A stretch of 64,000 nt of DNA. It comes from an uncultured Desulfurococcales archaeon (GTDB lineage: Archaea > Thermoproteota > Thermoprotei_A > Sulfolobales > CAZFJX01). A model generated the notes under the pieces. It did no database searches, was not told the DNA's origin, and saw only the letters and a program-made list of their open reading frames with translations. This document shows positions 5,486-38,678 of this stretch, piece after piece (position 1 is the first letter of the stretch; each line of letters opens with the position of its first letter). Location of the stretch: assembly GCA_964519505.1 (NCBI GenBank), contig CAZFJX010000003.1, positions 66,877 through 130,876 of the forward strand, written 5' to 3'. Position numbers and translations under genes: made by a program.

Positions 5486-5587
5486 GCGGGGGTGCCCGAG
5501 CTAGGTCAAAGGGGGCGGGCTCAGGATCAGTAATGGGAACCCCGCTGGCGTAGGCCTGCGTGGGTTCAAATCCCACCCCCCGCACCA
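5486..5587 (+). tRNA. tRNA-Leu(CAG) with 14-nt intron (5526-5539) at 37/38; CCA encoded
   Basis: GCGGGGG/CCCCCGC acceptor stem, GCGGG-CT-CAG-G...CCCGC anticodon arm, long variable arm, GGTTCAAATCC T-loop. BHB motif: CTCA pairs TGGG with 3-nt bulges. Confidence 0.95.
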
Positions 5588-16887: not shown

Positions 16888-18000
16888 TTGGGTTTTAAGT
16901 GCCCTAAAAGGATGCTTAATGGGCCATGTAGTAGCTACAGGGATAATCTATGTGAACTAGGCAACGTTGCATGCCCTTGGATAGGTGCTTATAAAGTACT
17001 TAGTAAGTATGGTAAGTTAAACGAGTTCTTTAAGTTTAGGCTAGACCCGGATTTCGTGGTTAGAGACTATTACCCAGTAACACGTAGGTCTCAGACATTA
17101 GTTAATAAGTTGCTGTCAGGTAAGTTAATGGTTTTTTATGAGGTTTACATACCTAAGTACCATAGAGTGCTTAAACATTTAGAAGAGCTTAAGGAATTAG
17201 CCAAATATGTGGATTTCTATGTAATTCCTGACTCACCCTTCGGTTTACCAACACCTCATGTACTTACGGTAGCTACAGCCATTAAGTTACTTATTGGAAA
17301 TAGTGTTATAACTGAAATATCATGTAGGAACAAGACCAAGGAGGAATTCATTAAGTTAATACTCACATCACTTTCGCTAGGTATAGAAGATTTCATTATA
17401 ACCACGGGTGACTTACCTTTAGGCGAAGGGGGTGAGTATTACTTTGAATTAGATTCATGTAGAGCCACATACCTAACTAGGTTAATCGCTGATTTAGGTA
17501 TAGATCATAAAGGTAGGTATGTCTCGTTAGGCGGGTTTAATGTCTCTATAGGAGTTGTTACCAACCCTAACAGTAAGTACTTAGATCTTGAGGTAGGTAA
17601 AACATTAAGGAAGTTGAGATGTGGAGCTAATGTAGTATTTCTGCAACTTACCTATGACTTCAAGTTGATTACTGACCTAGTTAAGGCACTTAGAAATGAG
17701 GTTAATAACTTACCTATAGTACCCTTATTCGTCCCATTAAAGAAAGTTAGTGATGTTAACATGGTTAAGCACTTAGGCATACGTATAGGTAAGAACGTGA
17801 GGGAAAAAGCATTAGACTACCTACGTAAGGGTAAAGCGCTAGAACTAAATATCGAGTTATTAAGGAATCTAATCGAGGTCATGGACACTACTGGATTAAG
17901 CTCAATATATATATCTACATACGGTGACATAACCCTAGCTAAAGAACTAATTAAGGTTGTGAAAGGGGTTGGGAAGGGGCTAACGGTGTTACGGGGGTAA
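16888..18000 (+). CDS. metF: Methylenetetrahydrofolate reductase with N-terminal Cys-rich MetV/MTHFR_C-like domain
   Basis: CPKRMLNGPC...CE...CPW N-terminus, then PDSP, SCRNK, TTGD, GANVVFLQ. Confidence 0.75.
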   Translation: MGFKCPKRMLNGPCSSYRDNLCELGNVACPWIGAYKVLSKYGKLNEFFKFRLDPDFVVRDYYPVTRRSQTLVNKLLSGKLMVFYEVYIPKYHRVLKHLEELKELAKYVDFYVIPDSPFGLPTPHVLTVATAIKLLIGNSVITEISCRNKTKEEFIKLILTSLSLGIEDFIITTGDLPLGEGGEYYFELDSCRATYLTRLIADLGIDHKGRYVSLGGFNVSIGVVTNPNSKYLDLEVGKTLRKLRCGANVVFLQLTYDFKLITDLVKALRNEVNNLPIVPLFVPLKKVSDVNMVKHLGIRIGKNVREKALDYLRKGKALELNIELLRNLIEVMDTTGLSSIYISTYGDITLAKELIKVVKGVGKGLTVLRG

Positions 18001-18048
18001 GCCTCCCACCCGTAACACCGTTAGGGGGCTGGGGGGCGCCAGCCACCA
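17961..18048 (-). ncRNA. Candidate antisense small RNA
   Basis: TTTATTAA box (18079-18072) about 25 nt upstream; GC-rich; 16-bp perfect stem 17980-17995/18009-18024; 15 nt complementary to the speH RBS. Confidence 0.55.
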
Positions 18049-18144
18049 TAATACCTTACCTTATGTGAGGGTTAATAAATTTAGTCACCATAGCCTCATT
18101 TAACCTATGGAATATGTTGTGCAGTATTACTTTGGTTTACGATT

Positions 18145-18150
18145 AAAAAA
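18145..18150 (-). terminator. Oligo-U terminator after speH
   Basis: T6 run on the minus strand immediately after the stop codon. Confidence 0.45.
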
Positions 18151-18153
18151 TTT

Positions 18154-18552
18154 CTATTGAGTATATAGTGATCTGTCAGCCTTACCTAGAACTACCTTAG
18201 CTGGCTTCAACATATTCACTATGTACCTAAAGGCCCTTTCAGGGTCTGTATGCGCACCGCAAGAATAAACATCTACTGTAGCAAAATCGTATTCAGGCCA
18301 TGTATGTATAGTTATGTGCGACTCGAGCACTATAGCTACTACACTAACACCAAGCCCTATTTTCCATGACTTAACGTCAAGAAGAGTCATATTCCCTAAA
18401 CGGGCCGCCTCAATAACTATTTCTCTTAAAGTATCTTCGTCTTCTAACAACTCCCTATCACATTGGTATAGGTTAGCGTATATATGCTTGCCAATAACCT
18501 TAGCTACCTCTCTACGCTCCTCGAGCACCTGAGTTTGTGTACCCCATACCAT
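18154..18552 (-). CDS. speH: S-adenosylmethionine decarboxylase proenzyme
   Basis: [37 protein letters not shown] (pyruvoyl cleavage site E/S). Matches the crenarchaeal SAMDC pattern rather than ArgDC; ATG 18552 follows a G-rich RBS. Confidence 0.9.
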
Positions 18553-18588
18553 CTCGCCCCCCAGCCCCCACATCTTAATGCCATAAGG

Positions 18589-18630
18589 TATAGGGGGGGT
18601 CAACTATTTAAACTTAACCCCCCCTCTATA
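18589..18630. promoter_or_regulatory. Inverted repeat around a TATA-like box upstream of speH
   Basis: AGGGGGGGTCAA-ctatttaaac-TTAACCCCCCCT (11/12 match). Confidence 0.5.
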
Positions 18631-18701
18631 AATGGTATTTATGATCTGAAGACCCTCCTAAGGTATGTCCCCCTTAATGCCCTAGTTGTGTATTTTAATC
18701 T

Positions 18702-38555: not shown

Positions 38556-38624
38556 ACGGCTCAGGCGGGTCCCGCAGTCATTCAAGGCCCTACGGCCCTG
38601 TCCTGCGGGGTCGCGGGCTCCCGT
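38556..38624 (-). ncRNA. H/ACA-like pseudouridylation guide RNA with K-turn (no ACA box)
   Basis: CCCGCAG-GA-CAGGGCC-GTAG-GGCCTTG-AAT-GA-CTGCGGG K-turn hairpin, internal pocket, ACGG/CCGT basal stem, TTTAAG box upstream. Confidence 0.65.
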
Positions 38625-38678
38625 AAGCACTCTCTGTTAGGGATCTCTTAAACCTTAAAGGTATTTGCTGATTTAGCT

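Follow-up and report, generated by a model that had tools for sequence, protein, structure and literature searches.

Does an archaeal gene for polyamine synthesis carry, directly behind it, an RNA able to close its own ribosome-binding site (RBS)? The question is raised by 64,000 nucleotides (nt) of contig CAZFJX010000003.1 from an uncultured Desulfurococcales archaeon (the window, whose positions are used throughout; the metagenome-assembled genome [MAG] to which it belongs has 1,635,647 bases at 40.7% G+C). A C-rich 15-nt sequence downstream of speH, the gene for S-adenosylmethionine (SAM) decarboxylase (AdoMetDC), is complementary to the G-rich leader just ahead of the speH start codon, and we refer to it as the anti-leader. 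The original prediction, made from the letters of the window, was that a separate small RNA carrying the anti-leader could control translation of the speH mRNA. The best explanation of the locus, which we hold with moderate confidence, is a dedicated anti-leader small RNA (sRNA) that blocks initiation of speH translation. Three features carry the argument:

18154..18552, minus strand: speH, S-adenosylmethionine decarboxylase proenzyme, an open reading frame (ORF) of 132 amino acids and the proposed target mRNA
18555..18569, minus strand: G-rich leader arm GGGGGCUGGGGGGCG, with its 3' end 2 nt ahead of the AUG and the presumed Shine-Dalgarno G-runs inside it
18024..18038, minus strand: anti-leader CGCCCCCCAGCCCCC, with 6 nt in the loop of a predicted hairpin (P1) and 9 nt forming the P1 3' arm; it abuts a second hairpin (P2)

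The complementarity is exact, as first claimed: positions 18024-18038 (GGGGGCTGGGGGGCG) are the reverse complement of 18555-18569, ending 2 nt ahead of the ATG, and only these two copies exist. In the whole genome, neither the 15-mer nor its 13-mer core nor the 10-mer GGCTGGGGGG is found outside these two sites. When up to 2 mismatches are allowed, two 15-nt matches are found against 0.06 expected, and none of 100 shuffles of the window reaches two. The surrounding 200-nt unit has one genome copy, plus its own internal palindrome, and a covariance model of the element (R1, described below) has one match in this genome. The null hypothesis named at the outset, chance or a decayed miniature inverted-repeat transposable element (MITE), is therefore rejected. 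A MITE or other repeat family is ruled out by the single-copy unit, the restriction of the motif to two sites and the one R1 match; a chance low-complexity match is ruled out by the shuffles, the two-site uniqueness and an orientation control (below).

The target belongs to the S-adenosylmethionine decarboxylases. The speH product matches Pfam AdoMet_dc (1.2e-36) and scores 129.9 bits against the NCBIfam equivalog TIGR03330 (cut-off 75.65), which places it in S-adenosylmethionine decarboxylase class 1b; its relatives in PDB are all AdoMetDC, the ES cleavage motif and HTWPEY are readable in the translation, and the ATG at 18552 is backed by the aligned N-termini of relatives. Most mRNAs of Desulfurococcales and Sulfolobales are thought to be leaderless. 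In many relatives speH has a leader of the form G4-6, one or two pyrimidines, G4-6 immediately 5' of the start, and the 3' end of 16S rRNA from a relative in genus g6 (G027) reads ...GGAUCACCUCCU, which makes G-runs directly before the start (GGAGG in genus g34) plausible Shine-Dalgarno elements, covered by the proposed duplex. The start of the speH transcript would follow from the position of its promoter element, which belongs to a block, GGGGTTAAATTTAAAAGG, kept upstream of speH in relatives:

18605..18612, minus strand: presumed speH TATA box TTTAAATA, which predicts a 5' untranslated region (UTR) of about 30 nt or less

We next asked whether the arrangement is conserved. This genome is the sole member of its family (f1) in the compared set, and its nearest speH proteins are about 70-74% identical, so that any conservation seen is deep. 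At each speH locus we compared the 110-150 nt surrounding the start with the 300-350 nt past the stop and recorded their longest exact complement. At most loci it is 6-9 nt long. At positive loci the complement always lies 100-140 nt past the speH stop, on the speH strand and next to a stable hairpin; the order has such loci in three families or more, and Acidilobaceae MAGs have them as well. The arrangement is present at all 17 cis loci examined (this genome [f1], all six g6 genomes [f6], and g15, g34, g37 and g38 [f3]), with additional examples in G083, L203 and L130. The longest exact complements are as follows:

L003, this genome (family f1): 15 nt
L016 and L021, g6 (family f6): 13 nt
L023 and L027, g6 (family f6): 11 nt
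L041 and L043, g6 (family f6): 10 nt
L046, L047 and L068, g34 (family f3): 13 nt
L050, g34 (family f3): 14 nt
L048, g34 (family f3): 8 nt exact, 13 bp with G-U
L058 and L065, g37 (family f3): 12 and 13 nt
L067 and G083 (a second g38 genome), g38 (family f3): 11 nt each
L032 and L060, g15 (family f3): 9 nt exact; 15 bp once one or two G-U pairs are admitted
L203, MAG contig labelled Acidilobaceae: 13 nt
L130, metagenome contig: 13 nt exact; about 20 bp once one G-U pair is admitted

More copies of the g34 and g15 types are found in the MAGs Sulfolobales archaeon SKYB66 and JZ-1 and in Desulfurococcaceae MAGs, and weak complements of 10-11 nt at L099 and L175. Across the positives the ungapped duplexes between leader and RNA are 12-19 bp long; on the mRNA side they end between 3 nt ahead of the start codon and 3 nt into it, and at 15 of the 17 cis loci the duplex reaches within 2 nt of the next hairpin or a few nt into it. 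Base composition was controlled for by orientation: among 168 distinct speH-family loci, matches of at least 12 nt number 12 in the reverse-complement sense, 1 direct, 0 reversed and 3 complement-only, and at least the two 12-nt complement-only matches (L058 and L065) are mirror-symmetric G/C runs of positive loci. The downstream neighbour differs among positives (a convergent MTHFR-like gene in this genome, L016 and L021; a same-strand FAD oxidoreductase in L032; in L023 and L027, no match to any of four tested neighbour proteins), indicating that the element belongs to speH and not to the MTHFR-like gene. By eye, the g34 loci have a similar reverse-strand C-terminal motif at their end.

The covariance model R1 was built from this genome, g15 and g34 and used to search 151 genomes of the order. 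It recovers the four expected genomes only (this one, and G014, G074 and G077 of g15/g34), with one copy each; the small RNA diverges too fast for R1 to map its distribution. Two weak R1 matches (E = 0.004 and 0.01) were rejected: both are far from any speH and fall within or next to G+C-rich sequence that looks coding. One alignment of the element (A4) has this genome's P2 arm shifted by 2 nt by MAFFT. In contigs of four vent or sediment metagenome runs, neither the RNA nor the leader varies, so that these contigs are uninformative for covariation.

The pairing is kept by different sequences in different lineages. Leader and RNA differ among lineages and stay complementary (GGGGGCUGGGGGGCG / CGCCCCCCAGCCCCC, GGGGGGUGGGGUC / GACCCCACCCCCC, GGGGUUGGAGGGC / GCCCUCCAACCCC, GGGGGUCGGGG / CCCCGACCCCC and GUCCGGGGGGUG / CACCCCCCGGAC). 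The central pyrimidines of the leader (CU, U, UU or UC) are matched in the RNA by AG, A, AA or GA; GGAGGG in g34 is matched by CCCUCC through an A-U pair, the same U stands opposite G in g15 (G-U), and C stands opposite G at that position in this genome and in g31. In alignment A3 (MAFFT, 17 complete loci, 15 pairs defined on this genome's sequence), 87.7% of cells are paired, compared with 81.5 +/- 1.3 after shuffling (0 of 500 shuffles reach it) and 70.7% in the best slid register, and the covariation score is 0.235, compared with 0.139 (0/500) and 0.107, respectively; the genomes being related and non-independent, these figures are indicative and are not probabilities. Four pairs have changed on both sides (for example, G-C 10, A-U 4, G-U 3). 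The comparison of sequences thus finds the leader/anti-leader pairing conserved and co-varying across species, and the co-varying downstream anti-RBS sequence that the original prediction had asked for in relatives, as its own means of refutation, is present in several families. The RNA-based control of polyamine synthesis that it had proposed is supported by this retention of pairing with different leaders.

The changes also identify the strand. A 17-pair outer stem, with alternation of A-U/G-U and U-A/U-G and two compensatory pairs, is common to the g6 elements; on the opposite strand these wobble pairs would be A-C mismatches, and the functional strand is therefore that of the speH sense. 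P2 of this genome (AACGGUGUUACGGG...CCCGUAACACCGUU) is homologous to the f3 stem GCGGUGAUUGGGG / CCCCAACACCGC, with A-U to G-C exchanges between them.

Whether the anti-leader is part of the speH message or of a transcript of its own depends on the following features, of which the TATA-like box, P1, the perfect 16-bp stem and the T run all lie at the positions first claimed for them:

18145..18150, minus strand: T6 run, 3 nt past the speH stop, a likely archaeal terminator of the speH transcript
18072..18079, minus strand: TATA-like box TTTATTAA(CCCTC), the proposed promoter element of the small RNA gene
17975..18049, minus strand: predicted small RNA core, a G+C island with a two-hairpin fold and homology to the f3 elements
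18024..18047, minus strand: predicted hairpin P1, GGUGGCUGG / loop CGCCCC / CCAGCCCCC
17980..18024, minus strand: hairpin P2, a perfect 16-bp stem (18024-18009 pairs with 17995-17980) with a 13-nt loop

A T run of at least 5 (5-7 T) follows within 30 nt of the speH stop at 14 of the 17 cis loci. At all 17, a TATA-like block (TTTATTAACCYC, or TTTATA/TTTTAACC in g6) lies 41-58 nt ahead of the anti-leader, and in alignment A1 no block other than the anti-leader is better conserved. About 22-24 nt past the box comes a start with G (GGGAGG or GGAGCC; GGUGGC in this genome), and the spacing from the box would put the start of the small RNA near 18049-18047; its 3' end may reach about 17961 or beyond. 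The core has 65.8% G+C compared with a genome mean of 40.7% (standard deviation 6.1), about 4 standard deviations above it and within the top 0.08% of 76-nt segments. Only 51 genome regions are equally G+C-rich, 24 of which are tRNAs found by ARAGORN, and the composition of the core fits a G+C island of the type that marks structured RNAs in this genome.

The strongest indication of a separate transcript comes from genus g31. There speH (leader GGGGGUUGGGGGGCU-AUG) abuts a convergent gene, with no anti-leader in the 420 nt past it, and all four g31 genomes have exactly one near-perfect anti-leader (at most 1 mismatch in 15) on a contig other than that of speH; the G059 copy matches at 17 of 17 positions, in a stretch that continues through the AUG. 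The three unlinked sites checked for ORFs (L257, L252 and L255) are intergenic, and their Pfam-checked neighbours are unrelated to speH. Ahead of the copies at L257 and L252 stands TTATTAACCCTC or TTTATTACCCCT, the same box as in this genome; the copies at L254 and L255 have TATTTTAAGG in its place. A trans-acting RNA can account for an anti-leader unlinked from speH; an element of the 3' UTR does not. Together with the TATA-like box at 17 of 17 cis loci, the g31 copies fit an element transcribed on its own from its own promoter, as the original prediction had supposed. Unlinked searches in other genera gave coding-looking sites only (g28) or were noisy (g3 and g30, where a C-rich stretch in G088/G036 lies just past a stop, has no TATA box and is unconvincing).

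Structure prediction (ViennaRNA) is compatible with pairing at 85-95 C. From 70 C upward the free leader has no predicted structure; the small RNA holds P2 up to 95 C, and P1 is melted by 95 C. Pairing of leader and RNA gains -15.9 kcal/mol at 85 C and -13.9 at 95 C, net of the opening of P1, and the intermolecular helix adjoins P2. In the predicted fold of the free RNA the P1 5' arm resembles the leader and partly hides the anti-leader, leaving six bases of it in the P1 loop, in keeping with the claim that the anti-RBS sequence lies in a hairpin whose C-rich loop is exposed.

These elements combine into a proposed mechanism. About 75 nt past speH, on the same strand, a small noncoding RNA gene served by a TATA box of its own would give a transcript that begins near 18049 and forms two hairpins, the second very stable. 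The six anti-leader bases in the P1 loop could serve as a seed, after which the whole 15-nt C-rich stretch, from the P1 loop through its 3' arm to the foot of P2, would pair with the entire G-rich Shine-Dalgarno region of speH. The duplex could stack on P2, and its predicted stability extends to 85-95 C. It would block the landing site of the 30S subunit and so reduce translation of S-adenosylmethionine decarboxylase, and with less SpeH the supply of decarboxylated SAM for polyamine synthesis would fall, presumably under some controlling signal. The RNA looks dedicated to speH, because the leader of the other speH-family gene of the genome is neither G-rich nor a match to the small RNA:

G000:C16:30484-30846 (locus L273 483-878), minus strand: second speH-family gene, 131 amino acids, about 50% identical, with HTWTKY and not HTWPEY; it is probably the pyruvoyl arginine decarboxylase known from Crenarchaeota, a distinction drawn from such motifs

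Several results weigh against an anti-leader sRNA that represses speH. A T run of at least 5 occurs within 200 nt past the anti-leader in just 2 of 17 elements, so that the element has no clear terminator, and in this genome a transcript would enter the MTHFR-like gene in antisense. Most loci examined have no adjacent anti-leader, several of them with similar G-rich leaders; none was found adjacent to speH in any of the eight single-contig genomes examined (L005, L006, L008, L013, L019, L022, L026 and L029) or in the genera g22, g33, g3, g30, g32 and g28, and every positive lineage found is known from a MAG or a metagenome contig. The 16S gene was not found in this MAG, and the Shine-Dalgarno assignment rests on that of the relative. 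As for covariation, the non-independence noted above applies, and the g6, g37 and g38 rows are partly out of register in A3. When duplex energies were computed all against all, in only 5 of 21 cases did the cognate partner strictly outrank those of the other groups: G-runs and C-runs pair promiscuously across lineages. This matrix and RNAduplex energies on long flanks both discriminate poorly, and we therefore relied on ungapped helices and column counts. Finally, repression is assumed by analogy, and stabilization or activation would use the identical pairing.

Among the alternatives, the one that survives best keeps the pairing and places it in cis: transcription would read through the T6 run, the anti-leader would lie in the speH 3' UTR, and the mRNA would fold back onto its own RBS. 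The placement of the element on the speH strand, just 100-140 nt past the stop at 17 of 17 cis loci, fits this; archaeal termination at T runs is leaky, and the element has no clear terminator of its own. Against it stand the TATA-like box kept at a fixed distance ahead of the element, the runs of 5-7 T between speH and the element at 14 of 17 loci, and the g31 anti-leader, which is absent from the 420 nt past speH and lies on a different contig. We regard this explanation as unlikely; cis and trans modes could both be present.

Slightly less probable still, in our judgement, is an RNA that pairs with the leader and acts positively or on stability, for example by protecting the short G-rich 5' end of the mRNA from 5'-3' exonucleases or by preventing a G-rich structure from trapping the start. 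In its favor, the pairing spans nearly the whole predicted 5' UTR, and M. mazei sRNA154 stabilizes some of its targets by masking RNase sites, according to a 2018 review (PMC5867862). A duplex that covers the Shine-Dalgarno G-runs, and even the start codon in L045, L130 and L203, is nevertheless hard to square with more initiation, and the free leader has no predicted structure from 70 C upward.

Within the repressive sRNA that we favor, a speculative extension, which we consider doubtful, is that the duplex between RNA and leader is itself the sensor, tightened by polyamines and loosened by heat. A G-C helix of 12-19 bp would then work near its stability limit at 85-100 C. If this were true, hotter cells would make more SpeH and more polyamine and polyamine-rich cells would make less; the system would be a protein-free product feedback and a trans-acting RNA thermometer at once, a way of sensing metabolite and temperature that is undescribed for any sRNA-mRNA pair.

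A feature of the DNA only (chance G/C similarity, a decayed MITE, the inverted repeats of an invertible segment or a duplicated protein site) is very improbable. The match is indeed G/C-rich, and the two arms are inverted repeats that flank the entire speH gene. Against this stand the restriction of the match to two genome copies and its absence from shuffles, an orientation control that argues against an effect of composition, the retention of pairing through different sequences and through G-U pairs, which are no identities at the DNA level, the unlinked g31 copy, and the absence of inversion joints in four metagenome runs (contigs only). We give as little credence to the hairpins being a plus-strand 3'-end structure of the convergent MTHFR-like mRNA with incidental similarity to the leader: the MTHFR-like stop codon does lie in the loop of the 16-bp stem and such a gene also follows in L016 and L021, but the element stays with speH beside other downstream genes (L023, L027, L032 and others), its G-U pairs fit the speH-sense strand only, and in g31, where speH meets the convergent gene directly, the element is missing there and present elsewhere.

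The repression by an anti-leader sRNA that remains our preferred explanation has parallels of several kinds. Staphylococcal RNAIII and RsaE-type sRNAs pair C-rich motifs in loops or linkers with G-rich Shine-Dalgarno sequences through short UCCC seeds and have many targets; the C-rich to G-rich pairing is alike, whereas the present system is archaeal and has a gene-specific duplex of 12-19 bp that co-evolves with one leader. In the bacterial pairs istR-1/tisB and orz/zor, the sRNA is encoded beside its single target and pairs with about 18-20 nt of the 5' UTR, blocking ribosome loading. There too the sRNA gene adjoins the target without overlap; the targets are, however, type I toxins with the sRNA as antitoxin, and here the target is a housekeeping enzyme, the layout is tandem downstream and the host is an archaeon. 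Eukaryotic AdoMetDC is subject to polyamine control through an upstream ORF and a peptide-mediated ribosome stall. The same enzyme would thus be controlled at initiation through its leader in both cases, here by the proposed RNA-RNA pairing and with no homology.

The SpeH reaction is the committed step for spermidine and for the long and branched polyamines that hyperthermophiles need for nucleic acid stability, and we know of no account that settles how archaea regulate it. Very few archaeal sRNA-target pairs are established, and here, in hyperthermophilic Desulfurococcales/Sulfolobales, one sRNA family can be tied to one target by comparison alone. The locus offers a concrete, testable handle on the step: the leader and the RNA are both defined, and compensatory variants occur naturally. 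Its layout is unusual in that the regulator lies directly behind its target and has moved elsewhere in one genus (g31).

The closest archaeal precedents are the M. mazei sRNAs 154, 41 and 162, described as trans-encoded RNAs that pair with the RBS of their targets and repress initiation (PMC5867862, PMC3510493). The 2018 review gives RBS masking for Methanosarcina only and, for Crenarchaeota, 3' UTR targeting only, in S. solfataricus (PMC5867862). As in those RNAs, an anti-RBS sequence in a loop or single-stranded stretch would pair with the RBS. Those RNAs belong to mesophilic Euryarchaeota, a different phylum, and have several targets in nitrogen and carbon metabolism; ours has no sequence or structure similarity to them. 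It apparently has one dedicated target, usually lies right behind it and occurs in hyperthermophilic Thermoproteota. Our literature search, with Sulfolobus and Pyrobaculum transcriptome supplements outside its scope, found no account of an archaeal sRNA that targets speH or AdoMetDC, in agreement with the original prediction, which knew of none. The mechanism is thus of a known kind; the family, the target, the host group and the layout behind the target are new as far as the searches made can tell.

Other identities of the element were considered. Searches with Rfam 15 at gathering thresholds found no family at the element (the two tRNA matches in the window lie elsewhere), the best hit of a permissive scan of 17850-18700 was snoR116 at 19.9 bits (threshold 47, E = 0.53), and ARAGORN found no tRNA at the element. 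A 32-codon ORF begins at 18049 in this genome. A small protein gene (leaderless mini-ORF) was rejected: an ATG lies near the predicted start in just 8 of 17 elements, where the ORFs (10-33 codons) are unrelated, and the other 9 lack one.

Some observations concern the surroundings of the element. The hairpin after the anti-leader opens with GAUGAG in g6 (L016 and L021) and in the unlinked G059 copy (L257), and L254 and L255 have CUGAUG...GUGAUGAGG after the anti-leader; kink-turn or C/D-box-like motifs at these elements could mean binding of L7Ae. On the far side of the spacer, which measures 153 nt from speH, lies the convergent neighbor:

16888..18000, plus strand: MTHFR-like gene, context only, with its 3' end overlapping the small RNA

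The features originally described lie in this spacer and the last MTHFR-like codons, and P2 is antisense to those codons and the stop (17998-18000). A side effect on the MTHFR-like mRNA is conceivable, P2 and the tail of the small RNA (17961-18000) being antisense to its 3' end; like speH, the gene is tied to the methionine/SAM cycle.

Upstream of speH, a G7/C7 inverted repeat (TATAGGGGGGGTCAA / TTAACCCCCCCTCTA, 18589-18628) flanks the speH TATA box on both sides, within the divergent promoter region common to speH and a dCTP-deaminase-like gene. A similar order of G-run, TATA box and C-run is found 5' of speH in relatives, Sulfolobaceae included, and in one metagenome contig the C-run is shorter by a 1-nt deletion at 18618. 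The repeat may be the binding site of a regulator.

Elsewhere in the window, the intergenic G+C-rich island at 38556-38630 is one of the 51 regions that equal the speH-linked RNA in G+C content. A TTTAAAGA box precedes it by about 15 nt, and it is obviously self-complementary (GGGTCCCGCAG...CTGCGGGGTC); it has no Rfam or tRNA match and is probably another unannotated structured RNA. At 5486-5584 Rfam finds a tRNA (44.3 bits) that ARAGORN missed, most likely because of an intron, and ARAGORN finds only 26 tRNAs in the whole MAG.

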